Source: an uncultured Actinomycetota bacterium
GTDB lineage: Bacteria; Actinomycetota; Acidimicrobiia; Acidimicrobiales; RAAP-2
NCBI GenBank assembly: GCA_963745595.1
Contig: CAVUYB010000033.1
Location: 349-64,348 of the forward strand
Direction: 5' to 3'
DNA: 64,000 nucleotides
Shown: one piece after another, positions 9,005-52,497 of the stretch
How positions within the stretch are numbered: position 1 is the stretch's first letter
Layout: every line of letters starts with the position of its first letter
Made by a program: the position numbers and the translations under genes
Notes under the pieces: generated by a model
Databases searched by the model: none
Seen by the model: only the letters and a program-made list of their open reading frames with translations
Told to the model about the DNA's origin: nothing

Positions 9005-9014
9005 CTCCTGGGGC

Positions 9015-10244: not shown

Positions 10245-10248
10245 GAGA

Positions 10249-10321
10249 AGGGCCGTAGCTCAGTGGTCAGAGCAGGGGACTCATAATCCCTCGGTCGTGG
10301 GTTCGATCCCCACCGGCCCTA
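10249..10321 (+). tRNA. tRNA-Met, anticodon CAU (elongator type; tRNA-Ile2/lysidine not excluded)
   Basis: A 73-nt cloverleaf folded by hand: acceptor AGGGCCG/CGGCCCT, D arm GCTC-AGTGGTC-AGAGC, anticodon arm GGGGA-CTCATAA-TCCCT (CAT at 10282-10284), variable loop CGGTC, T arm GTGGG-TTCGATC-CCCAC, discriminator A. CCA is not encoded. Confidence 0.9.
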
Positions 10322-10382
10322 CCGACGTCCGTGCTACTGATATGCAGCACGGGCCCCGATGCAGCACGGGCCTTTATGGAGC

Positions 10383-13699: not shown

Positions 13700-14581
13700 G
13701 TGCTCGGCCGAGAACGGGCGGCGACCGTCGTGACCGTGGCGGACCGACCGGTCGGGGTCGCGACGCCGGACGACGAGGACGTCGCCGCCCTCTGGCGCTC
13801 GTTCAAGCAGGACGGCAGCACGTCGGCCAGGAGCCGACTGGTGCACCTCTACTATCCGCTCGTCAAGCACGTCGCCCGGAACGTCGCGTCGTCGCTCTCC
13901 CGCCAGGCCGAGCTCGACGATCTCGAGGGCTATGGCGCAGAGGGGTTGATCGACGCCATCGACCGGTTCGACCCGGGCCGGGGTGTCCAGTTCCCGACGT
14001 TCGCCGCCCACCGGATCCGCGGCGCCATCTACGACGGGATCCGTAGCGTCGACTGGGTGCCTCGCAGCGTCCGTCGCAAAGCCCGGGAGCTCCAGGAGGT
14101 CCAGTCGGAGCTCAGCGCCACGTACGGCCGGCAGCCGACCGAAGAAGAAGAAGCGATGGCGCTCGACCTCAAGGTCAGTGCCCTCCGCCACAGCAAGGCC
14201 CAGGTGGCGACGGCGTTCGTCGCGTCACTCGACGCGCCCGCCCATCCCGAGGGTGGCCCGTCGACCGAGCCCGGGGACGGGGCCGACGAACCGCTCACGG
14301 CCTACCTGTCCCGTGAGGCCGGCCACACCGTGCGGGCCGCGATGTGCCGGCTGACCGAGCGTGAACGCACTGTCGCCACCCTCAGCTTCGGCCAGGGGAT
14401 GACGCTGGCCGAGATCGGCAAGACGCTCGGTGTGACCGAGAGCCGGGCCTGCCAGATCCGCAGCAGCGCGCTGAACCGGCTACGGATCTACATGCGGTCG
14501 CAGGGCATGGGCCCCGAAGGCGACTCGGCCGAGGAACGGCTCGTCGCGCCGGTCAGAGAGGTCGTCGACCAGGTCGGTTGA
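13700..14581 (+). CDS. fliA: FliA/WhiG-family flagellar sigma factor (paralog 1)
   Basis: Region 2 (LVHLYYPLVKHVA...LEGYGAEGLIDAIDRFDPGRGVQFPTFAAHRIRGAIYD) and region 4 (ERERTVATLSFGQGMTLAEIGKTLGVTESRACQIRSSALNRLR). Start is uncertain: the track ORF begins at 13568, but GC3 only rises after about 13700 (GTG candidates at 13700, 13730, 13736). Confidence 0.8.
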   Translation: MLGRERAATVVTVADRPVGVATPDDEDVAALWRSFKQDGSTSARSRLVHLYYPLVKHVARNVASSLSRQAELDDLEGYGAEGLIDAIDRFDPGRGVQFPTFAAHRIRGAIYDGIRSVDWVPRSVRRKARELQEVQSELSATYGRQPTEEEEAMALDLKVSALRHSKAQVATAFVASLDAPAHPEGGPSTEPGDGADEPLTAYLSREAGHTVRAAMCRLTERERTVATLSFGQGMTLAEIGKTLGVTESRACQIRSSALNRLRIYMRSQGMGPEGDSAEERLVAPVREVVDQVG

Positions 14582-15168
14582 CCCGGCCGGGTGATCCGGG
14601 CGATCCGTCGCCGGTAGTGATCGACGGCGGCCGGGCCCGGCTCGAGCCAGCGGTCTTCGACGACCGCGGTGAGGGAGCCTTTGCTGGTCGCCCCGGCCGA
14701 CAACGAGTCCCCGACGATGGTGGCCCAGCGCTGGGTGATCGCCCGGTGTACCCACCACTCGGCGTACGCCGAGAACCGGACACCGCGACGCCCGTCGAAA
14801 CGATCGGCCGCGTGGACGAGCGCGGCGTTGCCGGCCTGCACCAGCTCGACGAAGACCTGGGTCGTCGGGACCGGGTAGCGACGGACCTCGGCCATCACGA
14901 GCCGCAGGTTGGCCTCGACGAACGTCCGCCGGGCCCGCTCGCCGTCGTCGGCGACGGCCTCGAGCCGGGCCCGCTCGGCGCCGGTCACTCCGCCGGAACC
15001 AGCCGGTCGGCCTGGACCGGCCAGCTGGCTGGGACCGGCCAGCCGTAGCTGCGCCTCGGCGCCAGCGGCCACCGCCCGGGCCAGCCGTAGCTGGTCCGGA
15101 TAGGAGAGCAGATCGAGCTGTCCGACCTCCTGCTCGTAGTGGTGCAGGCGCTCGTCGCGATCGGGCAT
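14488..15168 (-). CDS. truncated sigma-70-like protein with regions 1.2 and 2 only (no regions 3/4)
   Basis: FVEANLRLVMAEVRRY, ELVQAGNAALVHAADRFDGRRGVRFSAYAEWWVHRAITQ. Its ATG (15166-15168) overlaps the TGA of the upstream fliA paralog (ATGA). Its 3' end overlaps the fliA-1 3' end by 94 nt (convergent). Confidence 0.55.
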   Translation of the reverse strand: MPDRDERLHHYEQEVGQLDLLSYPDQLRLARAVAAGAEAQLRLAGPSQLAGPGRPAGSGGVTGAERARLEAVADDGERARRTFVEANLRLVMAEVRRYPVPTTQVFVELVQAGNAALVHAADRFDGRRGVRFSAYAEWWVHRAITQRWATIVGDSLSAGATSKGSLTAVVEDRWLEPGPAAVDHYRRRIARITRPGQPTWSTTSLTGATSRSSAESPSGPMPCDRM

Positions 15169-15977
15169 CAGGACGCGGGCTCGCCGGCCCGCATGCGATC
15201 GAGCATCGACCGGATGGCGCGGGACCGGATGCGCGAGACCCGGCCCTCGGAGACGCCGAGGACGTCGGCGATCTCGCGCAGCGTCAGCTCGTCGAAGTAG
15301 TACAGCTCGAGCACCTGCCGCTGGCGGTCCGGCAGGTCGGCGATCCCCTCGCGGAGCACTCGGAGCTCCTCGGCCGCCTCGAAGGCGGCGGCCGGGTCGG
15401 TCGAGTGGTCGAGCAGGTGATCGGCTTCGTCCAGCTGGAGCTCGTCGACGGTGCCCCGAGCCACGTGGACCCGCAAGCGCTCGAACGCCTGCCGCGAGAT
15501 GCCCATCTCGGCGACGATCTCGTCCGTGGTCGGCGCGCGCTTGAGCCTGGTTTCGAGCTGAGCCGACGCGGTCGCCAGGGCTCGGGCCCGGGCCCGCACG
15601 GATCGTGGCGCCCAGTCGTCGGAACGGACGGCGTCGAGGATCGCCCCTTTGATGCGGGGGACGGCGAACGTCTCGAACTGGACGCCCCGGTCCGGCTCGA
15701 ACCGGTCGATGGCGTCGACCAGCCCGAAGACTCCCCAGTGGGTCAGTGAGTCGCGCTCGACGTGTCCGGGGAGCAGGGGCAGCATCCGGGCGGCGACGTA
15801 GCGAACGAGCGACAGGTACGCCGCGGTGAGCTCTGCCCGAACATCGCGGTCGCGGCCGTCGAAGAATCGCTGCCAGAGGGCGGCCGTGGTCGTGAGCGGC
15901 TCGGCCACTGGGCCATCGCCCAGGCCGAGGCCGTCCTCACTGCTCTGTGGCCACGCCGACACCGTAGCTGCAGACAT
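15168..15977 (-). CDS. fliA: FliA/WhiG-family flagellar sigma factor (paralog 2)
   Basis: ATG 15977 (residue 51 of ORF 15168..16127) lies 9 nt downstream of AGGAGG. Region 2 (GVFGLVDAIDRFEPDRGVQFETFAVPRIKGAILD) and region 4 (RQRQVLELYYFDELTLREIADVLGVSEGRVSRIRSRAI). Confidence 0.8.
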   Translation of the reverse strand: MSAATVSAWPQSSEDGLGLGDGPVAEPLTTTAALWQRFFDGRDRDVRAELTAAYLSLVRYVAARMLPLLPGHVERDSLTHWGVFGLVDAIDRFEPDRGVQFETFAVPRIKGAILDAVRSDDWAPRSVRARARALATASAQLETRLKRAPTTDEIVAEMGISRQAFERLRVHVARGTVDELQLDEADHLLDHSTDPAAAFEAAEELRVLREGIADLPDRQRQVLELYYFDELTLREIADVLGVSEGRVSRIRSRAIRSMLDRMRAGEPAS

Positions 15978-16053
15978 CTGGTTGGGACCTCCTAGGACCA
16001 GAAACGTATAGGACGCCGCCCGGCGAAGCGAACGGGGGTTGGAGCAGGCCCGT

Positions 16054-16081
16054 TCAAGATCGCCCGGGCCGGTGCCGATAG
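16054..16081 (+). promoter_or_regulatory. putative sigma-28-type promoter upstream of flbD-motAB-fliL: TCAAG-N15-GCCGATAG
   Basis: TCAA at 16054-16057, 16-nt spacer, GCCGATAG at 16074-16081. Confidence 0.6.
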
Positions 16082-16109
16082 GGCCTGCGGGGTCCCCCGT
16101 GCCCGCCGC

Positions 16110-16135
16110 CCTCTCGGGCGGGCGCACCCGAGAGG
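16110..16135 (+). promoter_or_regulatory. 5'-leader hairpin that sequesters the flbD Shine-Dalgarno-like GAGAGG
   Basis: 9-bp stem CCTCTCGGG (16110-16118) / CCCGAGAGG (16127-16135) with an 8-nt loop. The flbD ATG is at 16143. Confidence 0.4.
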
Positions 16136-21532: not shown

Positions 21533-22024
21533 GTGACCGAGATGGCCGTCACGACCGGACCGAGGTCCGTCGACGACGAGCGCGCGCCCGACGAGCGTGT
21601 CCTCGAGTTCGTCCGGCCGATCATCGGCTGGGAGGAGTCGACCCGGTTCGCGCTCCGCTCGCTCGGCGCCGAGTACGCGCCGTACCTGACGATGACGTCG
21701 CTCGACCAGGCCGGGCTCCAGTTCGTCGTCGTGCCGCCCGGGCGACTGTTCGCCGACTACGTCATCGAGGTTCCCGCGGCCGACCGCCAGCTGCTCGGCC
21801 TCGACGACCGCGCCGATGCGCTCGTGCTCGCCATCGTGCGGCGCCGCAGTGTCGCCACTCCGGTCGTGAACCTGATGGGCCCCATCGTCGTCAACCGGCG
21901 GACCGGCCACGCGACGCAGGTCGTCCTGCAGGACGCGGCCTACGGCGCCGCAGTGCCCGTCGACGCCGGTACGGCGCGCCCGCTCGGCGGCTCAGGTAGT
22001 ACGGCCCGCCCTCCAGGGGGCTAG
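21533..22024 (+). CDS. fliW: flagellar assembly factor FliW
   Basis: GTG 21533 (or ATG 21542) follows GAGGAGG. LEFVRPIIGWEESTRFAL...QFVVVPPGRLFADY...VVNLMGPIVVNRRTGHATQVVL matches FliW. Confidence 0.85.
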   Translation: MTEMAVTTGPRSVDDERAPDERVLEFVRPIIGWEESTRFALRSLGAEYAPYLTMTSLDQAGLQFVVVPPGRLFADYVIEVPAADRQLLGLDDRADALVLAIVRRRSVATPVVNLMGPIVVNRRTGHATQVVLQDAAYGAAVPVDAGTARPLGGSGSTARPPGG

Positions 22025-22048: not shown

Positions 22049-22630
22049 TTAGACGGGGTCGTCGGTGTCCGGGCGGTCGCCGACGAGCGCCGCGAGATCA
22101 CCGGCGAGATCACCGGCCGCCTCCCGGTTGGCCGCGGCCACATCCTCCCAGAGCTCCTTGCGGAACACGCGGCGGTCGGCCGGCGCGTCGATGCCGACGC
22201 GGACGTAGCTGCCCATCGTCCGGAGCACCGTGACGGTGACCGAGAAGCCGATCGCCGGTCCGGTGATCGCCAGGCACGGGTTGCCCTTGGAGATGGCAGC
22301 CACCGTGACCGTCAGCCCGTCGCCGATCGTCACCGACTCGCCGATCCGGCGGACGACCGACAGCATGGCGTCGACCGCTACCGCCGGCTCGTCGTCACCG
22401 GCCACGTCGACGCGCACGTCGTCGGTCGTGATCCGCACCGACGTCGGCGAGCCGACTTCGACGCGGACGTCGTCCGTGGAGATGGCCGTCGACGAGAGCC
22501 GGAACGGCTGGTCGAGGCCGGGCGCGGTGATGCGGAGGTGCACCTTGCGATCGACGACCGACGAGACCGTGACGTGGATGCCGCTCTCGACCACGATCGA
22601 TTCGCCCGGGCGCCGGTTCAGGACCAGCAT
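22049..22630 (-). CDS. csrA: duplicated (tandem) CsrA-like RNA-binding protein, 193 aa
   Basis: ATG 22630 (residue 23 of ORF 22049..22696) follows GGAGGGA. Segment 1: MLVLNRRPGESIVVESGIHVTVSSVVDRKVHLRITAPG. Segment 2: MLSVVRRIGESVTIGDGLTVTVAAISKGNPCLAITGP. Segment 3: SVTVTVLRTMGSYVRVGIDAPADRRVFRKELWEDV. Confidence 0.7.
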   Translation of the reverse strand: MLVLNRRPGESIVVESGIHVTVSSVVDRKVHLRITAPGLDQPFRLSSTAISTDDVRVEVGSPTSVRITTDDVRVDVAGDDEPAVAVDAMLSVVRRIGESVTIGDGLTVTVAAISKGNPCLAITGPAIGFSVTVTVLRTMGSYVRVGIDAPADRRVFRKELWEDVAAANREAAGDLAGDLAALVGDRPDTDDPV

Positions 22631-22722
22631 TCGTCGCTCCCTCCACGCCGGCCGGCTGGCCGACCGATCAGCCGTCCGTAGCGGACCGTCGCCCAAACCG
22701 TACCCGGCGGGCCGGCCGCGGA

Positions 22723-23043
22723 TCAGCTTCTCGGCTGGCCCCCGACCGGGGGTGAGGCGTCGCCACCGGACGACTGGCCGGCGGCCCGTCCCGGCTCGTA
22801 GTCACCGAACCGGGCCCGGGCCTCGTCGAGCAGCCGGGTGATCTCGGCCTGCCGGGCTTGACGGGCGTACATGTCGACGACTCGCTCGACCACCGCCGCC
22901 AGTGCCCAACAGAGGACGAGCGCGATGGCGAACCGGACGAGGCCGGCCGCCGGACTCAGCGCGCCGTCGAGCACCGACGGGAGGAACGGCAGCGACAGCA
23001 CGAGTGCGGCCGCGACGACGAGCTCCGGACGACGAACGCCCAT
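22723..23043 (-). CDS. small membrane protein, hypothetical
   Basis: 106 aa, two hydrophobic segments followed by a charged helix. Lies between the flhF-like and csrA-like genes on the same strand. Confidence 0.45.
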   Translation of the reverse strand: MGVRRPELVVAAALVLSLPFLPSVLDGALSPAAGLVRFAIALVLCWALAAVVERVVDMYARQARQAEITRLLDEARARFGDYEPGRAAGQSSGGDASPPVGGQPRS

Positions 23044-23053
23044 GGTCCCGCCT

Positions 23054-24462
23054 CTACCGTCCCGCCGCCAGGGCGGCCACGACGTCGGCCCAGCGCTCCG
23101 GCGTCGCCGGCTCGCCGTCCAGCCGGACCACCGGGATGCCGGCCGACAGGATCGCGGCCGGCGTGACCGTTCCTGCCACCTCGTCGACGACCAGTGCGTC
23201 TACCCCGCCGATGTCGTTCGCCCAGCGCTCGACGTCCTCCGGTTTCGTCGACGCCCGCGCCAGGCCCCAGACGCACGACGGTCGCATCGCTCGGAGCATC
23301 TCTCGGGCCCAGCGCCGGTCGGCTTCGGCCGACGACGCGTGGACGACGACGACACCGACCCCGTCGCGACGCCAGCCGGCCGAAAGGTCGGCCGCCTCGT
23401 CCGGCGTCCGCACCCGGTAGCCCGGTCGCCGCGAGCGCGTCGTGCCCTCGAGCGCGGCCACCGCGATCTCGCTCGGGCGAACGCCCAGCTCCGCCGCCAC
23501 CGAGCGGGCGACCTGGGTGGCCGCCCGTCCTTCGCCGACCACCGCCACCAGACTGCCCGGCGTCCTCGGTAGTGGTCGCGGTGCCGGCACGGCGGCGAAG
23601 GCCTCCTCCAACGAGCGAGCGCCGGCTGGCCCGCCGGTCGTCACGTCGCCCGCGGCAGCCGGCAGGAGCCACTCGGGGAAGCCGGCCATCACCAGACAGC
23701 CCGGACTGGGCAGCCGCCCAGGCGGCCGTCCGACGATCCGTGGGCCGATGGCCAGCGACCGGCGCAACCGACGCTCGCTCGTCGGCCCGCCGACCGGCGC
23801 AGCGGGCCGCTCGTCGGTCGCCGGCCGCTCGGTCGCCGGCAGCTCCGTCGTCGGTTGTGCCGGCGCGGCCAGCCGGCCGGGCGCGATTCGGCGCATCGTC
23901 GCCGGCCCGGGCCGGTAGGTGCCCGGCTCCTCGCCCAGCGAGCTGGCGACCTCGGTGAGCACTTCGTCGAACGACCGGCCCTCGAAGGGCCTCGTCGTCG
24001 GCGACTCGGCGGCCGACGGCTCGCGGCGCCGGCTGCGGCTGCGGCCGCGGCTGCCGACGACGTCGCCGGTGGCGACACGGCGACCGGCGCCGATGCGCCC
24101 GTGGTGACGCTGCGGTCGACGACGAAGCCGCGGCCGACAGCTCCAGTTCGTCCTCGGTCTCGTCGAGCAGCGCGGCCAGCCCTCTGGCGGTCGACCCGTC
24201 GATGGTCAACGTGAGGGCCAGCGTCGCCGGCCGTCGATGCCGCCAACCCGTCCATGGCCGACCCGTCGACCGCCGTGCCGGCGACCCGCCCGTCGGCGGG
24301 GTCGACCTCGATCGTGTAGACCTCCCGGGCGAAGAAGCCGAGGAAGCCGCCCTTCCGCCGCCGTTCGGGCGGCCGGATCTTGGCCGGGCCGTGCTGGTCC
24401 AGCACCTGCTGGATCAGCGCTTCGAGATCCGTGCCCTCATACACCAGCTGCTGCGCTGACAC
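23054..24462 (-). pseudogene. flhF: FlhF-like protein with degenerate GTPase motifs; three apparent frame changes (about 24220, 24125, 24020)
   Basis: N-terminus MSAQQLVYEGTDLEALIQQVLDQHGPAKI...GGFLGFFAREVYTIEV (FlhF B-domain-like, ORF 23689..24462). NG-like domain in ORF 23054..23962 has GSLVAVVGEGRAATQVA where GPTGVGKTT is expected. GC3 tracking shows the coding frame switching A-B-A-C between 24230 and 24010. Confidence 0.55.
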
Positions 24463-26522
24463 CGCTCACCACCCCAATTCGCTCGAGTTGTACGTGTGCG
24501 CCGATCTCGCTGACGGACATCACGGCCAGCCGGGGGACGGCCGTGGCGAAGAGCCGCTGGAGGGCCGGTCGGATGGGTGCGGCGACGGCCAGCACCGGCT
24601 CGGTGCCGGCCCGCGCCGCGTCGTCGAACAGCGAGCGGACGGCCGTGACGAGGTGCTCGGCGGCGGCCGGGTCCATCGGCAGCACGGAGCCGTCGTCGGT
24701 CGTCCGGACGGCGTTGGCCAGCGACTGTTCGAAGGCCGTGTCGAGAGTGATGACGGCCAGCTTCTTGTCCCTCGTGTGGAGCGCGGTGATGGCCGGCCCG
24801 AGGGCGACCCGGGCGGCTTCGGTCATCGCCTCCGGGTTCTTCGTCTGCCGGCCGCGCTCGGTGATCGCCTCGACGATCCGTACGAGGTCGAGGATCGGCA
24901 CGCCCTGGTCGAGCAGGGTGACGAGCACCCGGTGGAGATCGGTCACCGTGATCTGGGCGGCCGTCATCTCCTCCAGGGCCACCGGGTCGGAACCCTTGTG
25001 GGCGTCGAGCAGCGTGCGGACCTGCTGGACGGAGAGGAGCTCGCCGGCATGGGAGGAGGCGATCTCGCCGAGGTGGGTGATGATGGCCGACGAGCGGTCG
25101 ATGGCGGTGATGCCGGCCGCGGCCAGCGCCTCCTGGCGGGCCTCGGCGGGGATCCACTTGGCCGGTAGACCGAAGACCGGCTCGATCGTCGCCTCGCCGG
25201 GCAGCAGGTCGAGGCCGGCACCGATGGCCAGCATCCGCCCCGGCGGGGCCTGCCCCCGGGCGACCTCGACGCCGTGGACGCGGATGGCGTACGTGCTCGG
25301 CGGGAGGTCGATGTTGTCGCGGGTGCGCACCTTCGGGATGAGGATGCCCTTGTCGTAGGCGAGCTTGCGGCGGAGCCCACGGATGCGGTCGAGCAGATCG
25401 CCGCCCTGGGTCTTGTCGGCCAGCGGCGCCAGGTTCGGGGCGATCTCGAGCTGCAGCGGCTCGACCCGGATCTCGTTGGCCAGTGCCAGGGGCGTGTCCG
25501 CGGTGGCCGGGTCCTTGGCCGCGGCGTCGGTCGCCGCCCGCTCCTTCTCGTTCTCGGAGGCATGGGTTCGCCGGATCCGACTGGACACGAAGAGCAGGAC
25601 GACGCCGACGAGCAGGAACGGGATGTGGGGGAGCCCGGGCACGAGGGCGAGCACGAGCATGGCCCCGCCCGCCACCTGAATGGCGCGGGGCTGGTTGCCG
25701 AACTGGGCCGTGACGTCGGACCCGAAGTCGGCCTCGTCGGTCGCGCCGCGGGTGACGATCAGGCCGGTCGAGATCGAGAGCAGCAGGGCCGGGATCTGGG
25801 AGACGAGCCCGTCACCGATCGACAGGATGCTGTACGTGTGGATGGCGGCGGAGACCGACATGTGCTGCTGCAGGACGCCGATGGCGAAGCCGCCGATGAG
25901 GTTGATGAACGTGATGACGAGGGCCGCGATGGCATCCCCTCGGACGAACTTGCTGGCGCCGTCCATGTTTCCGTAGAACTCGGACGTCGCTGTCGATCTC
26001 CTTGCGCCGCCGCCGCGCCTCGGCCTCGTCGATCAGGCCGCTGTTCAGCTCACCGTCGATGGCGACCAGCTTGGGGGCCATGGCGTCGAGGGAGAACCGG
26101 GCGGCCACCTCCGAGACCCGACCGGCGCCGCTCGTGACGACGACGAACTGGATGACGATGAGGATCAGGAAGACGACGATCCCGACGATGATCGAGCCGC
26201 CGACGACGAACGAGCCGAAGCTCTGGACGACCGATCCGGCATAGCCGTGGAGCAGGACGAGCCGGGTGACGCTGACGTTCAGGGCGAGCCGGAACATCGT
26301 GGCCACGAGCAGCAGCGCCGGGAAGACCGAGAAGTCCATCGCCCGCCGGACGTGCATGGTCGTGAGCAGGACGACCAGGGCCGCCGACATGTTCAGCGTG
26401 ATCAGGATGTCGAGCAGGAACGTCGGCATCGGGACGACGAGCATCACGACGATGCCGATGACGATCGCGGGGACGCCGAACAGGCCCATCCGCTGCTTCA
26501 GGTTCATACGCTGCCTCGACAC
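24437..26522 (-). pseudogene. flhA: flagellar export gate protein FlhA, frameshifted near 25975-25985 as assembled
   Basis: ORF 25812..26522 gives the TM domain through ...AIDGELNSGLIDEAEARRRRKEIDSD. ORF 24437..25966 continues MDGASKFVRGDAIAALVITFINLIGG... to the cytoplasmic domain. The expected junction EIDSDV|EFYGNMDGASKF lies in two frames (1-nt indel in gacgtccgag). Confidence 0.9.
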
Positions 26523-26595: not shown

Positions 26596-26623
26596 GTATC
26601 GGCCGGTCGCCACGAGACCTTGA
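26596..26623 (-). promoter_or_regulatory. putative sigma-28-type promoter of the flhA operon (minus strand): TCAAG-N15-GCCGATAC
   Basis: The plus strand reads gtatcggc (26596-26603) ... ttga (26620-26623). The reverse complement is cTCAAGgtctcgtggcgaccgGCCGATAC, with a 16-nt spacer. Confidence 0.6.
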
Positions 26624-27126: not shown

Positions 27127-29529
27127 TCAGGCGGTGGTGACCATCTCTGGTGCGGCCCGGCCCGGCCGGGCCGGGCGGGCCCGCCAGGCCCGGGCGGCGA
27201 GCAGGCGCAGGCCGTCGGGGTCGTCGGGGCGGACGACGGCGAGGTGGGCGAACGGCCCCTGCGGTCGGCGGGAGGAGAGGACGGCGTAGACCTGGTCGGC
27301 GACTTCGCGGTCGGTGGCCGCGGCCGCAGTGGGCGGCAGGATGGCAGCGACCTGGGGACCGTGCTCGACGTCGACGCCAGCCTGGTCGGCGACGGCGCGC
27401 AGCGCCCGCTCGAACTCGATCGGGTCGACGGACGGACCGTAGACGACGAGGGACGCGTCGTCGGCGGCGGTGAACGCCTGGCCGTAGGTGGCGAGCAGGG
27501 CGGGGTCGCCGAGCACCTCGTCGGCGTGAGCCAGGACGAGGAAGCGGCTGGTCGGCGTCGGCCGCTGACGGGCGACCTTGGTCGCGACGTACCGCTGGTT
27601 GTCGGCGGACATGGCGGCCGGCGTAGAGGGCCCGTCCCAGATGCCGGCGACGGTGGCCGACGACCGGTGCTCGAAGTGCAACACCTTGCCGGCCCGCAGC
27701 CGGAGCACGCGCTCGCCGATGCGGGCGGCCCGCATGGCGTAGTCGTCGTCGTCGTGCCAGAAGAGGCCGAGGCTCTCGTCGAACCGGCCGATGCGGGCGA
27801 CGGTCTCGGGCCGCAGGAAGAGGCAGAACCCGACGGCGACGTCGCACGGCTGGGGACCGTCGCCGACGACCGGGTGGAGCTCGCGCCCGTCGGGGCCCCA
27901 CGTCACCCGCACGCCGTCCTCACCGGCGATGCCGGCATCGGGATCGGCGTCGAGGGCGGCGACGTACGGCGCCCACCAGTCGGCGAGGACCTCGGTGTCG
28001 TTGTCGAGGAAGACGATCCAGTCCTCGTCGCCGTCGAGGTGGTCGAGGCCGACGTTGCGGCCGCCGGGCACGCCCCGGTTCTCGGGCAACAGGACCGGTC
28101 GGACGCGGTCGTCGTCGAGACCGCGGAGCCAGTCGGCGGTGTCGTCGGTCGACGCGTTGTCGACGACGACGAGCCGGAGCGGGACGGTCGTGTGGTGGAG
28201 GAGGCTGGCGATGCAGCGCTTCGTGTAGCCGAGCGCGTTGTGGGCGAGGACGACGACGCCGAGCTTCGGCGACGGCCGGAGGGCCCGGCGGGAACGGTGT
28301 CCGGTCCCCAGGCCGACGGCCGATCCGAGGCCGCCGACCAACCGGTCGGCTCGCACCTGGGCGAGCAGGTCGAGCTGACGACCGACCGCGGCGGCGGGGT
28401 CGAAGAGCCGGCGGACGCTGGCCGCGCCCCGCCGGCCGACGTCTTCCAAACGCTCCCGGTCGGCCAACTGGTCGGCGGCCATTCGGCCGAAGGTGACGGC
28501 GTCGTCGGTGGCGATGGGGAGCAGCCCGTCGTCGGGCGTCAACCAGTGCCGCAGCCCGCAACGGTCGCCGCAGATCACCGGCACGCCGGCCGCGAGGGCC
28601 TCGGCGGCCGCGGTGTGGAAGTTCTCGAACCGGGAAGGGAGGATCGCGGCGTCGGCCGCGGCGAGGTGGCGGGCGACGCCGTCGAGGTCGAGCTGCTCGA
28701 CGAAGCGGACGCGATCGAACCCGAGCCCGAGATCGTCCATCAGCGGCCGGAGGACGGCCCGCCGGTACGACTGGCCGGATGGTCCGGTCGGCGTGTCCCG
28801 GCCGACGAGGGTGACGCGGGCGTCGACGTTGCGGCGGGCCAGCTCGGCCACGGTGTGCAGAACCAGCTCTGGTCGCTTGTTCGGCTCGAGGCGGCCGACG
28901 AAGACGAGCTCGAGCTCGTGCGGCCCGACGTGGACGCGGGCGGCGAAGCGGGAGCCGTCGAGCGGCGGGGCGAGCACGGCGACCGGCGGCCGCGAGCCGG
29001 CCCGACCGGCCGTCTCGGTGGCGATGAGCTGGGTGGGCGCGACGAGGATGTCGGCCCGGTCGAGCGCGAGGTGCTCCATGTCGGCGGCAGCGGCGAACGC
29101 CGGGTCGCGCCGGCGGTCGCAGCGGTCGGGATGGACGACGGCCCGGGTGGCGTGGAGCTGGACCGCCAGCACGGTGCCGGGCGCGGGCTGGATGGCCATC
29201 GACTCGGCGAAGTAGTCCGGCGCCCAGATCGCGTCGAAGCCGACGGTCGCGTCGAGGGCTTGGTAGAAGTTGGCGACCGTCGCCGCCCACAGGCCCTGCT
29301 CGACCTCGGGGTGGCCGGCCGGCGCGCCGGCCGGCATCGGCAGGCGGTAGACCGCGACGCCGTCCTGTAGGACACGGCGGCCCTGCCCGGTCCGGTCGAG
29401 CGAGATGACGTGGACCGCGACGCCGTGGTCGACGAGGCCGCGGGCGGTCATCTCCGACACCCGGCCGATCCCGCCGTCGGCCGTCTCCGGCGGGTACTCC
29501 CGGCTGACGATGCAGATGCTCCTGATCAT
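27127..29529 (-). CDS. bifunctional glycosyltransferase (N-terminal GT-B/GT4-like domain plus central GT-A/GT2-like domain), 800 aa
   Basis: MIRSICIVSREYPPETADGGIGRVS... with an EX7E-type GT4 core (ILPSRFENFHTAAAEALAAGVPVI), then PKLGVVVLAHNALGYTKRCIASLL...VVVDNASTDDTADWL (GT2). Confidence 0.8.
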   Translation of the reverse strand: MIRSICIVSREYPPETADGGIGRVSEMTARGLVDHGVAVHVISLDRTGQGRRVLQDGVAVYRLPMPAGAPAGHPEVEQGLWAATVANFYQALDATVGFDAIWAPDYFAESMAIQPAPGTVLAVQLHATRAVVHPDRCDRRRDPAFAAAADMEHLALDRADILVAPTQLIATETAGRAGSRPPVAVLAPPLDGSRFAARVHVGPHELELVFVGRLEPNKRPELVLHTVAELARRNVDARVTLVGRDTPTGPSGQSYRRAVLRPLMDDLGLGFDRVRFVEQLDLDGVARHLAAADAAILPSRFENFHTAAAEALAAGVPVICGDRCGLRHWLTPDDGLLPIATDDAVTFGRMAADQLADRERLEDVGRRGAASVRRLFDPAAAVGRQLDLLAQVRADRLVGGLGSAVGLGTGHRSRRALRPSPKLGVVVLAHNALGYTKRCIASLLHHTTVPLRLVVVDNASTDDTADWLRGLDDDRVRPVLLPENRGVPGGRNVGLDHLDGDEDWIVFLDNDTEVLADWWAPYVAALDADPDAGIAGEDGVRVTWGPDGRELHPVVGDGPQPCDVAVGFCLFLRPETVARIGRFDESLGLFWHDDDDYAMRAARIGERVLRLRAGKVLHFEHRSSATVAGIWDGPSTPAAMSADNQRYVATKVARQRPTPTSRFLVLAHADEVLGDPALLATYGQAFTAADDASLVVYGPSVDPIEFERALRAVADQAGVDVEHGPQVAAILPPTAAAATDREVADQVYAVLSSRRPQGPFAHLAVVRPDDPDGLRLLAARAWRARPARPGRAAPEMVTTA

Positions 29530-29545
29530 GCTGTTCTCCCGACGG

Positions 29546-30397
29546 TCATGCTGGCCTCCCGACGATCACGACGTTGTCCTCGTGCGGGCAGTACAGGTCG
29601 GCAATGCGGAACCCGGCCTGCCGCACCAGCCGGGCCAGGTTCTCCTCGCTGAAGAGGTGGACGTGCTCGAGTGGGCTCATGCACTCCCAGTCGTCGCCGT
29701 CGACGACGTAGGTGAGGGCGTCGGTCGTCGGCGTCTCGGCCACCAGCAGGCCGCCGTCGGCCAGCACCCGCCGGCACGCTTCGAGCACGGCGAGCGGCTC
29801 GAAGAGGTGCTCGACGACGTCGTGGAGGAGGACGACGTCGAAGCTGCCGGCCGCCAGTCCGAGATCGCGGATGTCGCCGCAGTACAGCTCGATGCCGTGC
29901 GCCTCCTTGGCCGCCGCGCAGATGTCGGCCGACGGCTCGACGCCCTGGGCGGCGAACCCGAGGTCGCGGGCCGCTCGCACGGTGCCGCCGTTCGACGCGC
30001 CGACGTCGAGGAGCCGGCCGGCCGACGCGAACGGCAGCACGTCGCGCTGCAGCTTGCCGAAGCCGTTGCGGTAGTCGTACTCCGTCCGTTCGGCGAGCGT
30101 CGGCGAGCCGATGCCGAGGCAGTAGTCGGTCCAGTACGCCTGCCCGTAGAGGTCGGCGACGGCCGCCTCGGGGAGGCGCGGACTGACGAAGAGGTGGCCG
30201 CACTCGTCGCACGTCCGCAGGTCGATGCCGTCGACCGTCGTGGCGTGGGACGTCGCGGCCGCCGGCCCGCACAGGACGCAGGGGACGTCGTCCCATCGAT
30301 ACTGCGCCCGGAGGCGATCGATGACGTCGTCGCGGCGCTGGCGGTGCTGCTCGGCCAGCTCGGGGACGTGGAACCGGGTGGGCATGACGTCGGCCAT
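29546..30397 (-). CDS. class I SAM-dependent methyltransferase
   Basis: ATG 30397 (residue 77 of ORF 29546..30625). Motif I is LLDVGASNGG, followed by FDVVLLHDVVEHLFEP. N-terminal CxxC...CxxC zinc-ribbon-like segment. The upstream ORF part is Arg/Pro-rich junk. Confidence 0.8.
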   Translation of the reverse strand: MADVMPTRFHVPELAEQHRQRRDDVIDRLRAQYRWDDVPCVLCGPAAATSHATTVDGIDLRTCDECGHLFVSPRLPEAAVADLYGQAYWTDYCLGIGSPTLAERTEYDYRNGFGKLQRDVLPFASAGRLLDVGASNGGTVRAARDLGFAAQGVEPSADICAAAKEAHGIELYCGDIRDLGLAAGSFDVVLLHDVVEHLFEPLAVLEACRRVLADGGLLVAETPTTDALTYVVDGDDWECMSPLEHVHLFSEENLARLVRQAGFRIADLYCPHEDNVVIVGRPA

Positions 30398-30402
30398 CGT
30401 GG

Positions 30403-31837
30403 TCACCTTCCGAGTGCGGGGACGCGGGCGGGCGGTCGTCGGGTGCGGCCGAGCCGGTCGTCGATCTCGGCCAGCCGGCGCCGGATCGTCGAACCGGTGA
30501 CCGCGGGGCCGTGGGTACGGCGGATGTCGCGCTGGGCGAGCCGGCCGCGGGCGGCGGCCTCGTCGGGGTACGTCCAGACGCGACGCAGCAGGCGGACCGC
30601 GTCGTCGTGCCGCGGCTCGGCCCACGTCGCGCCGGCCGGGTAGACGTGCTCCAGGCCGGTCGGTACCCGACCGGGATCGAACGGGACGAGGAAGCTGTTG
30701 TCGGCGGTCATGAAGTCGAGATTGCCGGAGTACCCGGTGGCGACGACCGGCCGGCCCCAGGCCATCGCCTCGGCCGGCGTGAGCCCGAACCCCTCGGCCC
30801 GGTGGAGCGAGACGGTGCAGTCGGCGTGACCGACGAGGTCGGCGATCTCGTCGTCGGTGAGGTAGCCGTCGAGCAGGACGACGTCGCGACGGCCGCCGAC
30901 CGCGTCCTGCAGGTCCCGCCAGCCGGCCGGGTCCCAGGCGGCGTTCAAGACCTTCAGGACGAGGACCGGGCCCTCACCCGGCGTGAAGGCATCGCAGAAG
31001 GCCCGGACCGTGCCGAGGCCGTTCTTACGGACGGCCACCGAACCGAAGTCGAACATGGTGAGGAACGTGAACGCGTCCGGCAGGCCGAGCTCGCGGCGGG
31101 AGCGGCCGGGACGCCCGGTGCGGTGGGGGACGGGCAGGGGGACGGTGACGACCGGCTTGTCCGTCCGGCGGGCCAGCGCGTCGCGGATGAACGCGCTCGG
31201 CGCCCACAGCTCGTGGACGTACGCGAACGCGGGGACGTGGCGGGTCGGGAGCTCCTCGAGCTCCCAGAACCAGATGCCGACGGTGTGGCGACCGAGCCAC
31301 AGCTCCGCGCCGGCCATCGTCGCGAACGGCGGGAGCAGGTCGGCGTTGAGGACGAGCAGGTTCGTGTCGTACGTCAGCCGGTCGGCCGGCGCGGGCGCGT
31401 CGGCGACGACCGGCGACCCGTGGCGCCGGTAGCGCGAAGGCGGCCGTCTCGATCCCCGCGCCGTCGGCCGCGGCCAGGTAGCGCCGTCCGGCGTCGCCGA
31501 CGCCGCAGGCCGCGTCGAGCAGGCCGACGACGTTGAGCCCCCGCCGCACCGACCGCGGCAGGTACGGCGGCGTCCAGTCGAGCGGGTCGGATCGGACGAT
31601 CGGCGACCACGATCCAGGTGCCCCGACCCGGTCGACGCGGCAACCGGGCATGCCGGCGCACCGCCAGCCGGCCGCGGCGAGGGCGGCATACGTCGCCGGC
31701 GGGACGAGGTGCCCGTCACCGTGGTGGCTTCTCTGCCGGGCGTCCCCGTCGGTGCTCTCGCCCCGGTCGAGGGCGTCGTCACCGGCCAGCGCCCGGGGCC
31801 CGCCGACCGAGTCGAGGGCCAGCCGGCGGACGGCCAT
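30403..31837 (-). pseudogene. GT-B (GT4-like) glycosyltransferase, frameshifted near 31440 as assembled
   Basis: N-part in ORF 31025..31837 (GLNVVGLLDAACGVGDAGRRYLAAADGAGIETAAF). The remainder is in the ORF 30403..32658 frame (RYRRHGSPVVAD...LNADLLPP...VSLHRAEGFGLTPAEAMAWGRPVVATGYSGNLDF). Confidence 0.7.
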
Positions 31838-32267
31838 GACCGGCGGCCCTGACTCCGGCGGCCTGACTCCGGCGGCCTGGCATCGATGGTGCTGCGACCT
31901 CCGGCACGACGACGCCGATGCCGGGATCGTCGGCGAACGGGGCGACGGCCGCGTCGAGCCAGCCGTCCGGTAGCGCCGCCCGGGGGTCGACGAGCACGAG
32001 CAACCGCCCGGCGGCCAGGTCGGCCCCGGTGGCGAGGGCCTCGCCGGGTCCGGTGGCGAGCAGCCGGTGGACGATGCGGACCGGGCCGGTCAACCGGGTC
32101 AGCTCGGCCCGGACCGCCGACGTCGTGCCGTCGTCGACGACGACCAGCTCCGCGTCGGGCCGGGCCGCCACCGCCCGGGCCAGCCCGGCCAGGGCCGGCG
32201 GCGGAGCCGGCGTCGGCGGACCGACCGCCACGACCACCGAGACCGACGGGTGTTCGTCCGTCATACC
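31779..32267 (-). CDS. short GT2-like (GT-A N-terminal half) protein
   Basis: ATG 32267 (residue 107 of ORF 31779..32585). SVSVVVAVGPPT...AELVVVDDGTTS...LLVLVDPRAALPDGWL. Only about 160 aa, so it may be incomplete. The 3' end overlaps the next gene. Confidence 0.4.
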   Translation of the reverse strand, partial: GMTDEHPSVSVVVAVGPPTPAPPPALAGLARAVAARPDAELVVVDDGTTSAVRAELTRLTGPVRIVHRLLATGPGEALATGADLAAGRLLVLVDPRAALPDGWLDAAVAPFADDPGIGVVVPEVAAPSMPGRRSQAAGVRAAGHGRPPAGPRLGRRAPGAGR

Positions 32268-34066
32268 AGCACCTCCTCTTGCCGCATCGACTCGCTCGAC
32301 GCCCCGTCCCGGGGCGCCCCGACGAGGCCGGCCAGGCGATCGGCGACGACGGCGGCCGTCCGTTCCCACGTGAACCCGGCCACGATCCGCTCCCGCCCGG
32401 CCGCCCCGCGCCGCTGCCGCTCGTCGGGGTCGGCGACGACCTGGCGGAGGGCGGCGACCAGCCCGAGACGGCTCGTCTCCGACCACCAGGAGCCGCCGGC
32501 CGTCGGCGTCCACTCGGCCGGCGCGATCCGGACGCGGCGGGCCGGCACGAGCCAGCCGGCGCGGTCGTCGCAGAAGTCGAGGCACGGACCGTCGTCGGGC
32601 ACGACGACCGGCAACCCGGAGGCCATCGCCTCGGCGATCGGCAGCCCGAACCCTTCACCGCGGTACGGGTGGACGAGCGCGTCGCAGCTCCGGAAGAGAT
32701 CGGCCATCTCGGCGCCGGTCAGGTCGCCGTCGACCACCTCGACCGCGGCGCCGCTCCCGGCCGCGGCTCGGCGGACGTCGGCTTCGAGCGTCGACGTCCG
32801 GTAGACGCTGTCCGAGCCGAACGGCTTGACGACGAGGCAGACGTCGTCGGCCGCGCCGAACGCGCCGAGGTAGGCCTCGAGCAGGATGTCGATGCCCTTG
32901 CGCTCGATGCAGCCGCCGACGAAGAGGAGCCGCGTCCGCTTCGTCGTCCGCAGCGCGAACCGCGGGCCGTCGGGCCGGAACCGGTCGACGTCGACCCCGT
33001 ACGGGACGACGTGGACCCGGTCGGCCGGCACGCCGCTGGCCACCGCGCAGTCGCGACCCCACGTCGTCGGCACCCACAGCTCGTCGACGACGTCGCGGAC
33101 CGGGCCGACCCACTCGGCCGGCAGCTCGCCGAACTCCCACGGCTGCATCAGGACGAGGCGGCCGCTCGCCGGCGGCGAGAGGTCCGGCGGCCACTGATGG
33201 CGGACCTCGACCGCGGCGGCCGACTGCGGCCTCGTCGCAGCCGGACCGGTGGTCGAGCGCACGGTGACACCGCCGAGCTCGTCGACCGTGTCGACCGGGT
33301 ACGGCGGTCGTTCGCCGGTGCAGGCGACGACGTCGAGCGCCGTCCCGTCGGCGGCCAGGCGGCGGACGATCTCGCGGTTGGCATGGGCCAGGCTGTGGTG
33401 GGCGAAGACGTCGCCGACCCAGCGGACCGTCGGGCGACCGTCGGGCGAGCCGTCGTCGGACCGGGGACGGTGCCACGGCGCCGGCAGCCCGGCCAGCGGG
33501 TCGGTGGCGTGGTTCGCCGGCCCCCCGTCCTCCGTCGACCGGCTGCTGTCCGGCCCGGTCGCGACCCGCGGGGCCATGCGGGACCAGAGCTCGTCCAGCT
33601 CGACCAGGCCGGCGACCGCCCGGGCCAGTCGGTCGGCGTCGTCGGGGTCGTCCGGCACGAGCAGCGCCGGCGTGCCGGAGACGGCGGCGGCCGACAGCCA
33701 GTGTTCGGCGCCCGCGGTGACCGCGACGACGACGGCCCGGGCCGTCCGGAGCCACGGCGTCGGATCGGCGACCGGTCCGGCCGGCAAGGCCAGCGGTAGG
33801 GCGTCGGCCATCCGGCGCCCGGGGTCGTCGCCGACGACGGCGATCGGCGTCGTTCCCAGCGCGGTCGCCAGCGCCGGCGCGGTCACCCGCTCCCAGCGTT
33901 CGCGTTCGGCCGGCGTCACCCGCCGGAAGTCGCCGACGACGCAGACGCCGGTACGGACGCCGAGCGGGACGACCGGCCCGGCCGGGAACAGCGACGGGGC
34001 GGACGCGATGGCCGGCGTCACCCGCCCGTTCCCATTGGCCGACCCGGTGGTGATGGCCCTCAACAC
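32261..34066 (-). CDS. GT-B (GT4-like) glycosyltransferase, 601 aa
   Basis: C-terminal LLFVGGCIERKGIDILLEAY...ALVHPYRGEGFGLPIAEAMASGLPVVVPDDGPCLDF. Confidence 0.75.
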   Translation of the reverse strand: MLRAITTGSANGNGRVTPAIASAPSLFPAGPVVPLGVRTGVCVVGDFRRVTPAERERWERVTAPALATALGTTPIAVVGDDPGRRMADALPLALPAGPVADPTPWLRTARAVVVAVTAGAEHWLSAAAVSGTPALLVPDDPDDADRLARAVAGLVELDELWSRMAPRVATGPDSSRSTEDGGPANHATDPLAGLPAPWHRPRSDDGSPDGRPTVRWVGDVFAHHSLAHANREIVRRLAADGTALDVVACTGERPPYPVDTVDELGGVTVRSTTGPAATRPQSAAAVEVRHQWPPDLSPPASGRLVLMQPWEFGELPAEWVGPVRDVVDELWVPTTWGRDCAVASGVPADRVHVVPYGVDVDRFRPDGPRFALRTTKRTRLLFVGGCIERKGIDILLEAYLGAFGAADDVCLVVKPFGSDSVYRTSTLEADVRRAAAGSGAAVEVVDGDLTGAEMADLFRSCDALVHPYRGEGFGLPIAEAMASGLPVVVPDDGPCLDFCDDRAGWLVPARRVRIAPAEWTPTAGGSWWSETSRLGLVAALRQVVADPDERQRRGAAGRERIVAGFTWERTAAVVADRLAGLVGAPRDGASSESMRQEEVLV

Positions 34067-36825: not shown

Positions 36826-36853
36826 TCAAGTCGGGCGGGCCGGCGGCCGATAG
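36826..36853 (+). promoter_or_regulatory. putative sigma-28-type promoter of fliC: TCAAG-N15-GCCGATAG
   Basis: TCAA at 36826-36829, 16-nt spacer, GCCGATAG at 36846-36853. Lies about 117 nt upstream of the fliC ATG. Confidence 0.65.
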
Positions 36854-36920
36854 CAACCTCGGTTCGTCAAGACGGCGGGCCACCGGCCGGTGGCACGTCG
36901 TCACCGGCCGGAGCAGTACC

Positions 36921-36972
36921 CAGGAACCAGCTGCACATGGACGTGCAGCCCAGCGAACGGAGGATACGGATG
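36921..36972 (+). promoter_or_regulatory. fliC 5' leader with candidate CsrA sites: GGA in a hairpin loop plus GGA repeats across the Shine-Dalgarno region and start codon
   Basis: Hairpin GCTGCAC-AUGGAC-GUGCAGC (36930-36949; loop GGA at 36939-36941). ACGGAGGAUACGGAUG (36957-36972) holds three GGA motifs, and there is one more at 36923-36925. Confidence 0.5.
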
Positions 36973-37803
36973 TCTTCTCTCGTGGTCGACACCAACCTTT
37001 CAGCCATCACAGCGCTGAACGACCTGAATGCTACGAACAGCAAGATGGCCTCGGCCATCCGGGAGCTGTCCTCGGGCCTCCAGGTCCAGACAGCCGCCGA
37101 CGGTCCGGCCCAGTACGTCACCAGCCAGGCGCTGGAGTCGCAGGCCAACGGCTACTCGACGGCCATCGCCAATGCCCAGGACGGCGTCTCGTTGATCCAG
37201 ACCGCGTCGGGAGCGCTCAACCAGATCTCGTCCATCCTGCAGACGATGGACCAACTGGCGCTCTCCTCGGCGAACGGCGCGACCAACGACGCCACGTCGC
37301 TGGCGGCCAACCAGCAGGAGTTCGCCGCACTGCAGTCCGACATCAACCAGATCGCCGGCACGACCAGCTTCGGCCAGACCACCCTGCTCGACGGTTCGTT
37401 CTCGAGCCAGACCCTGCAGGTCGGGGCGTTCGACCTGTCGAACCAGCAGATCAGCCTGTCCATCGCCGCCGCGACAGCCGGCGCGCTGGGCGTGACCTCC
37501 GGCGTCGTGGGCGTCGGCTCGGCGTCGTCGGCCCAGGCGGCGGTGACCGCGGTGCAGAGCGCGATCTCGTCGGTCGACAGCATCGAGGCGTCGGTCGGCG
37601 CGGTGCAGAACGAGCTGCAGGCCATCGTGGCCAACCTGACGGTCGGGCAGCAGAACCTCTCGGCCGCCGACAGCCAGCTCGTCGACGTGAACATGGCTCA
37701 GGAGATGACCTCGTTCTCGACCGACCAGATCCTGGAGCAGACCGGCGTCGCCATGCTGTCCCAGGCCCAGCAGGCACCGCAGTTGGTCCTCAAGCTCATC
37801 TGA
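36970..37803 (+). CDS. fliC: flagellin (277 aa)
   Basis: ATG 36970 follows GGAGGA. N-terminus MSSLVVDTNLSAITALNDLNATNSKMASAIRELSSGLQV. C-terminus VQNELQAIVANLTVGQQNLSAADSQLVDVNMAQEMTSFSTDQILEQTGVAMLSQAQQAPQLVLKLI. Only the last 277 codons of ORF 35572..37803 are coding. Confidence 0.9.
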   Translation: MSSLVVDTNLSAITALNDLNATNSKMASAIRELSSGLQVQTAADGPAQYVTSQALESQANGYSTAIANAQDGVSLIQTASGALNQISSILQTMDQLALSSANGATNDATSLAANQQEFAALQSDINQIAGTTSFGQTTLLDGSFSSQTLQVGAFDLSNQQISLSIAAATAGALGVTSGVVGVGSASSAQAAVTAVQSAISSVDSIEASVGAVQNELQAIVANLTVGQQNLSAADSQLVDVNMAQEMTSFSTDQILEQTGVAMLSQAQQAPQLVLKLI

Positions 37804-52469: not shown

Positions 52470-52497
52470 TCAAGTACCGGCCCCGACGTGCCGATAG
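52470..52497 (+). promoter_or_regulatory. putative internal sigma-28-type promoter upstream of fliM: TCAAG-N15-GCCGATAG
   Basis: TCAA at 52470-52473, 16-nt spacer, GCCGATAG at 52490-52497. Lies in the 141-nt gap after flgE. Confidence 0.6.

Follow-up and report, generated by a model that had tools for sequence, protein, structure and literature searches.

What kind of RNA regulator is encoded by a gene whose product starts as CsrA and, halfway along the same chain, starts as CsrA again? CsrA is among the most studied post-transcriptional regulators of bacteria, and models of its action assume a symmetric homodimer whose two RNA faces are identical, be it in bridging a pair of GGA sites, in being sequestered by multi-site small RNAs or in forming a 2:2 complex with FliW. 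The question is raised by a 64,000-nucleotide (nt) stretch of DNA from an uncultured Actinomycetota bacterium of the order Acidimicrobiales (GenBank assembly GCA_963745595.1, contig CAVUYB010000033.1, positions 349 to 64,348; hereafter the window), in which a csrA-like open reading frame (ORF) of 193 amino acids (aa) lies beside fliW. The answer proposed here, with a probability of about 0.58, is that its product is a single-chain CsrA pseudo-dimer which acts as a FliW-antagonised flagellin repressor and has one canonical RNA site.

Three stretches of the 193-aa chain match the Pfam profile CsrA (PF02599; E = 1e-29, 102.7 bits with a cutoff of 27), and three match NCBIfam TIGR00202 (90.3 bits in sum; cutoff, 70.1), for which each half alone falls below the cutoff (39.7 and 56.8 bits). 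An earlier reading of this DNA that used no database searches (the sequence-only reading) had placed the ORF at the same coordinates and seen three CsrA-like segments in it; the ORF and both profiles agree, the number of PF02599 matches being three rather than one. By phmmer against PDB chains, CsrA 1-29 is the counterpart of residues 88-116, and CsrA 14-57 that of residues 127-168. The internal repeat greatly exceeds chance: comparison of residues 1-37 with 89-125 (score 64) has z = 11.3 relative to shuffles, and alignment of the family profiles of halves I and II by hhalign is collinear over 62 columns (E = 2.5e-11). The start MLVLNRRPGES is common to all 62 homologues described below. An internal start at M89, which would give a separate half-II protein, was rejected, since M89 is variable within the family and no Shine-Dalgarno sequence precedes it.

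Insertions and deletions (indels) do occur in this assembly (a 1-nt insertion in flhA, an FlhF-like gene in three frames and a split ArsP permease gene), so that the ORF had to be backed by independent evidence. When 5.8 billion proteins were searched, the yield was 62 full-length homologous clusters of 172-247 aa, down to 36% identity, the named members of which are from Acidimicrobiales; the ORF is collinear with orthologues of 94% (P0001) and 89% (P0002) identity. An exhaustive hidden Markov model search of 1.84 billion representatives gave about 22 clusters at 50% identity, which are matched end-to-end in one stretch. In a scan of GTDB species representatives, the long csrA-like gene was present in 23 genomes, labelled Acidimicrobiales, Acidimicrobiaceae, 'Actinomycetes' or Actinomycetota; all 23 are metagenome-assembled genomes (MAGs) produced by different assemblers, including independent short- and long-read assemblies, and none has a cultured host. 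The sequence-only reading had considered that relatives might carry two separate genes for proteins of about 70 aa each, but the gene is split in none of the 23 genomes and 62 clusters, all of which have a single long chain. The long single-chain form is conserved across uncultured Acidimicrobiia. In Thermoleophilia (Patulibacter, Thermoleophilaceae), an ordinary csrA for a 76-aa protein directly follows fliW. Two short entries of 99 aa (P0084) and 86 aa (P0080) were considered as free-standing unit II intermediates, a reading rejected as unproven; their starts are non-Met or mid-domain, and they closely resemble the C-terminal halves of the full-length proteins P0077 and P0065 and are probably truncated gene calls.

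For the construction of the halves, the family alignment was compared by hhalign with a reference profile of 66 canonical CsrA proteins. Canonical positions 1-44 are matched by residues 1-44 (E = 9e-21), and canonical positions 1-61 by residues 89-174 (E = 3.7e-22), the latter with a 25-residue insertion at 104-128, i.e., at the β2/β3 boundary; when the inserted hairpin is deleted in silico, half II aligns to CsrA 1-55 of PDB without gaps. By these alignments, an entire CsrA domain, interrupted by a hairpin of 25 aa, is present in residues 89-174. The two later segments of the sequence-only reading are thus CsrA-like, as it held, but are not a second N-terminus followed by a leftover piece. 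The 'linker' of about 55 aa that it placed between the halves (residues 38-88) is not a linker at all, containing four strands predicted with confidence by AlphaFold2 and two further, degenerate β3/β4-like hairpins.

Pairwise profile comparison by hhalign of five segments of 24-26 residues (14-37, 38-62, 63-88, 102-125 and 126-150, corresponding to hairpins h1 to h5) indicates that they are mutually related and of β3/β4 type (P = 1e-4 to 8e-8, mostly in full register), with P values of 6e-5 for h1-h2 and for h2-h5, both in full register, and 5e-5 for h2-h3. The order along the chain is β1-β2 and three hairpins, then β1-β2, two hairpins, β5 and a helix; in half I, h3 and a short helix occupy the place of β5 and its helix. 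A β5 strand of the form V-x-R-x-E is not recognisable in half I in profile comparisons. Two motifs were considered as a lost half I β5, 'PFR44' and 'VR56VE58V', but are doubtful candidates, because R56 aligns to the β4 Arg of VR[IL]G and not to R44 of CsrA, and the 1-44 alignment ends at R44, a column conserved in 56% only.

β5 with the critical Arg is found once in the chain (V155, R157 and E159), followed by the C-terminal helix, and the conservation of the two halves is uneven. Over 63 sequences, the residues L2, V3, L4, R6, R7, E10, R56, G146, A149, P150, V155, R157 and E159 are invariant, and E58 in h2 is near-invariant. Mean column conservation of β1-β2 is 0.94 in half I against 0.57 in half II, whose β1 bears F, C or Q substitutions throughout whole clades (e.g., ATFSFLCRPGQV); the RNA-contact motif of β1 (L2, L4, R6, R7 and E10) is invariant in half I and degenerate in half II. 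In canonical CsrA, RNA binding depends most strongly on L4 and R44, and each RNA face consists of β1 of one subunit and β5 of the other (PMC7652899). We infer that β1 of half I and β5 of half II, in which R157 corresponds to R44, would rebuild exactly one canonical RNA face. The reciprocal face is doubtful, because β1 of half II is degenerate in many clades and β5 of half I is not detectable.

In addition to these canonical positions, the extra hairpins carry conserved residues of their own, namely R56 and E58 in h2 and an SKGNP loop (S114-K115-G116-N117-P118) in h4. Judged from the alignment, these residues mark a conserved surface absent from canonical CsrA in this context.

Canonical CsrA is an obligate domain-swapped, interdigitated dimer, in which β1 and β5 of one subunit flank β2-β4 of the partner (PMC7652899). 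AlphaFold2 models were built from the 63-sequence alignment, for the full chain and for residues 1-88 alone. The full-length model is one compact domain of 15 strands plus a single long C-terminal helix at 158-183 (mean predicted local distance difference test score, pLDDT, 90.9; predicted template modelling score, pTM, 0.82). In the model of residues 1-88, all strands are kept but β1 (strand 2-6): residues 1-10 become coil and pLDDT decreases from 97 to 82, as would be expected from pairing of half I β1 with some strand in half II. In a Foldseek search of PDB, CsrA chains 5dmb_D and 2bti_A are the top matches of the 1-88 model (probability 0.98, root-mean-square deviation 1.7 Å), in superpositions that span 36-38 columns for these two chains and just 36-40 overall, with weak E-values. 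The full-length model has no significant match in PDB (best CsrA chain 2bti_A, E = 0.59), which is uninformative, since each PDB chain is a single extended protomer. An interdigitated intramolecular pseudo-dimer fits these predictions. The sequence-only reading had suggested an asymmetric pseudo-dimer that has the Arg-bearing β5 only once, and the unequal conservation, the single set of V155, R157 and E159, the pTM value and the loss of strand 2-6 without half II speak for it; the asymmetry of conservation supports, rather than proves, a single intact RNA site.

The location of the gene points to FliW as partner. As the sequence-only reading noted, and as the ORF coordinates and the Pfam match of fliW confirm, the csrA-like gene is the last of the flhA operon and is convergent with fliW, with 24 nt between the stops. 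The window shares a fliW-linked csrA-like gene with 10 related loci (L003-L010, L023 and L024), and together they make up a flagellar subfamily defined by synteny. Its gene sits at the junction of a flgN-flgK-flgL-fliW operon and an operon of flhA, the FlhF-like gene and a gene for a 106-aa protein; in the window, too, flgN-flgK-flgL lies upstream of fliW. In three of the 10 loci (L010, L023 and L024), the long gene follows fliW in the canonical tandem at this same spot, whereas in the window, L003-L006 and L008 it ends the flhA operon, at this junction but on the opposite strand. Because the same junction is held on the other strand, the convergent layout looks like a local inversion of a single gene. 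Convergence in place of the usual fliW-csrA tandem is therefore real in the window but lineage-specific, as the long genes of L010, L023 and L024 are in tandem. In L003 (on the same contig as L001), from the closest relative and encoding a 94% identical protein, three tandem genes of the YbjQ_1 family separate the csrA-like gene and fliW (8775-11517); the YbjQ_1 genes of L001/L003 are absent from the window.

Sequence motifs point in the same direction. In Bacillus subtilis, FliW binding requires CsrA N55, which contacts FliW Q124, and this pair is reported to be invariant where csrA and fliW co-occur (bioRxiv 10.1101/2020.07.02.184341). In the long chain, N168 lies 11 residues past R157, just as N55 lies 11 past R44, and the window FliW keeps the Gln equivalent to Q124 (..ATQVVL, compared with ..GKQLVL of PDB 2aj7). 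The helix motif ELW..AAN[RKMT]AAAG is kept in 11/11 flagellar-linked members and in 0/13 paralogues of a second, non-flagellar subfamily (L011-L022 and L025; e.g., L020 9002-15160). These paralogues have no flagellar neighbours, lack the FliW-contact Asn and have a C-terminal D.xAGS tail; their genes follow a gene for a luciferase-like monooxygenase and are convergent with glgX, glgB and treS/maltokinase genes of alpha-glucan storage. Two MAGs hold both paralogues, one flagellar and one non-flagellar.

The flagellin leader in the window is a candidate target. It contains a hairpin with an ANGGAN hexaloop and, downstream, a GGA-containing Shine-Dalgarno sequence. The hairpin region matches the ACA, GGA and GU cores of the consensus obtained by SELEX (ACA..GGA..GU; consensus and CsrA motif definitions, PMC7652899). 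The hairpin is conserved in 10 relatives (among loci L038-L050), with compensatory changes at 6/8 pairs; it has no Rfam family, and an Rfam scan of 20-40 kb was empty. The sigma-28/FliA-type motif TCAAG-N15-GCCGATA has four matches in the window, compared with 0 expected in shuffles. As the motif is common to the flhA operon and flagellin, the csrA-like gene would belong to the regulon of its presumed target. A scan for sigma-70 promoters and terminators around the csrA-like gene gave nothing. Two sigma-factor genes are located at 14488-16127 (minus strand).

These observations can be combined in the following account. An ancestral CsrA gene would have gained extra copies of the β3-β4 hairpin and undergone tandem duplication, specifically in Acidimicrobiia. 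The two halves would interdigitate within one polypeptide in the manner of two homodimer subunits, with sheets of about seven strands instead of five. The surviving RNA face would be composed of half I β1 (L2, L4, R6 and R7) and half II β5 (V155, R157 and E159), and the C-terminal helix with N168, present in half II only, would dock FliW. The protein would then be the CsrA component of a flagellin-FliW-CsrA partner switch: its binding to leader GGA (in the ANGGAN hairpin, the GGAGGA Shine-Dalgarno sequence or both) would block flagellin translation, and one FliW per chain would free it after flagellin export.

Several points weigh against this account. β1 of half II is still CsrA-like in the window (MLSVVRRIGES) and in several divergent members (e.g., VTLTRRPGEAI of P0077), so that a second, weaker RNA face may exist, and the non-flagellar subfamily partly retains the motif L-x-[ILV]-x-R-[KR]-x-G-E. 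The strand pairing derives solely from predicted secondary structure and confidence values, and single-chain AlphaFold is blind to inter-chain swapping. In the leader, the ANGGAN hairpin and the Shine-Dalgarno GGA are 20 nt apart, a geometry suited to a two-site protein (bridging range of two-site CsrA, 10-63 nt; PMC7652899), and the loop GGA is kept in only about half of the related leaders, the rest having a 5-nt A-N-G-A-N loop. The core salt bridge of CsrA D41 and FliW K123, which is needed for inhibition in B. subtilis (bioRxiv 10.1101/2020.07.02.184341), is not conserved here: the D41 position is R154 in the long chain, and the K123 position is Thr. Also, frameshifts affect flhA and the FlhF-like gene in the window, and the locus could in principle be decaying. 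The two frames of flhA result from one extra base at 25991 (GACAGCGAC here, compared with GACGCGAC in two relatives); the same two relatives have an intact FlhA of 689 aa that is 99% identical, and the extra base probably reflects an indel of assembly or sequencing, not a true pseudogene.

The first and third of these points also feed a rather unlikely alternative, in which the pseudo-dimer has two working RNA faces, the second being a diverged one formed by half II β1 and a strand of h2 or h3 (perhaps with R56/E58 or R73), and bridges two GGA sites of one leader in the manner of a normal CsrA dimer. Half II β1 looks canonical in the window as well as in a number of divergent members, G97/E98 are widely kept, R56 is invariant and E58 near-invariant, and the spacing of the hairpin and the Shine-Dalgarno GGA falls inside the bridging range. 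These features have to be set against the lack of a V-x-R-x-E match for β5 in half I, where R56 falls on the β4 Arg, against the lower conservation of half II β1 with its clade-wide substitutions, and against the absence of the loop GGA from half of the related flagellin leaders.

A different use of the halves, which we consider improbable, is pairing between chains, half I of one with half II of another, to form head-to-tail swapped dimers or open oligomers with two or more canonical sites. This would be in line with the obligate domain swapping of CsrA (PMC7652899), and the single-chain models are blind to it. Yet the pTM value indicates a confidently packed arrangement of the single chain, the strict asymmetry of conservation argues against exchangeable halves, and the connection between them (residues 77-88, with a helix at 82-85) is short and structured.

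Loss of RNA regulation is more improbable still. In that case the protein would serve as a FliW sink or an adaptor of flagellar assembly, with the enlarged sheet as a protein-binding platform. The lineage-specific invariant residues of the extra hairpins that have no canonical counterpart (R56, E58 and SKGNP) and the existence of a paralogous subfamily outside flagellar loci would be consistent with this idea, but the family-wide invariants are the canonical RNA-contact residues L2, L4, R6, R7, E10, V155, R157 and E159 (for their roles, see PMC7652899). Finally, it is hardly credible that two adjacent csrA genes were fused into the long ORF by an assembly error or indel, or that the ORF is a decaying pseudogene in a degenerating flagellar locus, despite the indels in flhA, the FlhF-like gene and the ArsP gene, because the architecture is uninterrupted in 62 clusters and 23 genomes with identical N-termini and invariant RNA-site residues, the ORF is collinear with the orthologues of 94% and 89% identity, and the alternative frames of residues 38-88 code for nothing CsrA-like.

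Table 1. Features of the csrA-like locus and of the flagellin leader, with positions in the window.
Feature	Position	Strand	Remarks
csrA-like ORF	22049..22630	minus	193 aa and TAA stop; intact
Ribosome-binding site GGAGGGAG	22637..22644	minus	6 nt 5' of ATG (22628-22630); read from sequence
Half I β1-β2, residues 1-14, MLVLNRRPGESIVV	22589..22630	minus	almost invariant; proposed β1 of the single canonical RNA site
Hairpin h1, residues 15-37	22520..22588	minus	canonical β3-β4 of half I; hhalign and Foldseek
Hairpin h2, residues 38-62	22445..22519	minus	degenerate, β3/β4-like; R56, E58; predicted strands 43-49, 54-60
Hairpin h3 and short helix, residues 63-88	22367..22444	minus	strands 62-67, 72-76; helix 82-85
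Half II β1-β2, residues 89-102, MLSVVRRIGESVTI	22325..22366	minus	canonical-looking here, poorly conserved family-wide
Hairpin h4, residues 103-126	22253..22324	minus	extra β3/β4 at half II β2/β3 boundary; SKGNP loop
Hairpin h5, residues 127-150	22181..22252	minus	canonical β3-β4 of half II (VRVGIDAP)
β5 and C-terminal helix, residues 151-183	22082..22180	minus	R157 = CsrA R44; N168 = B. subtilis CsrA N55
fliW	21542..22024 (start codon uncertain)	plus	Pfam FliW E = 2.7e-25; aligned to FliW of PDB 2aj7 and 5dmb
Upstream genes of the same operon	22723..26522	minus	flhA, FlhF-like gene, 106-aa membrane protein gene
flhA	24437-26522	minus	frameshifted in assembly
FlhF-like gene	23054-24462	minus	three frames in assembly
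106-aa membrane protein gene	22723-23043	minus	
Flagellin gene	36970..37803	plus	ATG at 36970
Flagellin promoter and leader	36826..36972	plus	proposed RNA target
Leader hairpin GCUGCAC-AUGGAC-GUGCAGC	36930-36949	plus	7 bp, ANGGAN hexaloop; within GCACAUGGACGU
Flagellin Shine-Dalgarno GGAGGA	36959-36964	plus	
TCAAG-N15-GCCGATA	16054-16080	plus	upstream of flbD-motAB
TCAAG-N15-GCCGATA	26597-26623	minus	upstream of flhA; proposed driver of the operon from flhA to the csrA-like gene
TCAAG-N15-GCCGATA	36826-36852	plus	upstream of flagellin
TCAAG-N15-GCCGATA	52470-52496	plus	upstream of fliM

Other parts of the window deserve mention. The FlhF-like gene, which encodes an FlhF-like N-terminus with no Pfam match and is 456 aa long in relative L001, has its frame breaks inside a repeat region of (A/L)VDG(L/S), which would imply at least two more indels in the assembly. 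An ArsP_1-type permease (60241-61567, minus strand) is present as two overlapping ORFs that cover profile positions 12-131 and 168-292, as after a frameshift. About 10 kb of genes for multidomain glycosyltransferases (GT2, GT4 and others; 27127-36711, minus strand) lie between flhA and the flagellin gene and may be a flagellin glycosylation island. A single ORF of 668 aa (45256-47262, plus strand) has a FliH domain (residues 63-180) and a FliI ATPase (363-649), and is either a FliH-FliI fusion or an assembly artefact.

The closest known proteins are the canonical CsrA/RsmA proteins of FliW bacteria (B. subtilis, Geobacillus; PDB 5DMB, 1T3O). The long chain matches the same family profiles above curated cutoffs and has in common with them β1 of the form ML.L.RR.GE, β5 of the form V-x-R-x-E-L and the helix Asn equivalent to N55; the neighbouring fliW, the flagellar late-gene setting and a flagellin leader with a GGA hairpin and a GGA-containing Shine-Dalgarno sequence are also shared. 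In contrast to these proteins of about 60-80 aa, a single chain here contains two CsrA-derived halves and five β3/β4-like hairpins, whereas a canonical dimer has two hairpins. One β5 with its Arg and one C-terminal helix would limit the chain to a single canonical RNA face and a single FliW site, in place of two of each. The residues of the D41-K123 salt bridge, present in B. subtilis, are missing from the CsrA-like protein and FliW here, and the window gene is inverted relative to fliW, unlike in the canonical layout. By sequence the protein belongs to the CsrA family, but with 193 aa, 15 predicted strands, one long helix and halves that are non-equivalent and unequally conserved, it falls outside the definition of CsrA as a symmetric homodimer of small subunits (about 60-100 aa, β-β-β-β-β-α).

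RsmN/RsmF of Pseudomonas aeruginosa is a CsrA family protein of rearranged topology, in which an alpha-helix is inserted at β2/β3, and is a small symmetric homodimer with two RNA sites and without internal duplication. It resembles the long chain in tolerating an insertion at β2/β3, the same position as that of the extra hairpin of half II. Another kind of repetition is predicted in metagenomes, namely two-domain CsrA tandems of about 140-190 aa (P0085, P0095, P0146, P0183, P0186, P0109 and P0168) and chains of 248-310 aa with three or four CsrA-like units (P0086, P0092 and P0096), each a singleton cluster on one or two contigs. Like the window protein, these have more than one CsrA-like unit per polypeptide; unlike it, they consist of complete head-to-tail domains joined by low-complexity linkers, each domain with its own β5 (HRKEVY-type) and helix, and they have neither hairpin amplification nor asymmetry.

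As for function, the nearest likeness is artificial. In an engineered Escherichia coli CsrA heterodimer, as described in PMC7652899, one R44A subunit disables one face and glgC repression is incomplete (Mercante et al., 2009). That heterodimer has one working and one disabled RNA face in a CsrA dimer scaffold, and the csrA-like protein appears to be its natural, covalently fixed analogue. The heterodimer is laboratory-made from two separate 61-aa chains with normal five-stranded sheets, whereas the csrA-like protein is evolved and conserved, and would have wider sheets and an antagonist in FliW.

No account of long or duplicated CsrA came up in literature searches, and the single-chain duplicated form is apparently undescribed. 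In the largest survey of function across natural CsrA variants, proteins of more than 100 aa were left out on purpose (PMC13443453), and in databases the long homologues are labelled just 'carbon storage regulator'; the class has gone unnoticed because of this length cutoff together with generic automated annotation.

With what is apparently a single RNA face and a single FliW site, a conserved natural form of fused subunits and enlarged sheets would make it possible to test which properties of CsrA need two sites, a requirement that has so far been approached only via engineered R44A heterodimers. For the evolution of folds, it would represent a path from an obligate domain-swapped dimer to a monomeric fold by duplication and hairpin amplification, and a monomeric one-site GGA binder could serve as an engineering part. 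Computational as the present account is, its interest for the CsrA, FliW and protein-fold-evolution fields is clear. More speculatively, and with a good deal of doubt, Acidimicrobiia might have replaced the symmetric CsrA homodimer by a covalent asymmetric pseudo-dimer that retains one GGA face, with the other face and the amplified hairpins, including R56/E58 and the SKGNP loop, repurposed as a new interaction surface, and this protein might have diversified into a FliW-controlled flagellar regulator and a FliW-independent paralogue at glgX-glgB-treS/mak. If true, this would be a natural conversion of a two-site bridging RNA regulator to a one-site regulator with a built-in sensor face.

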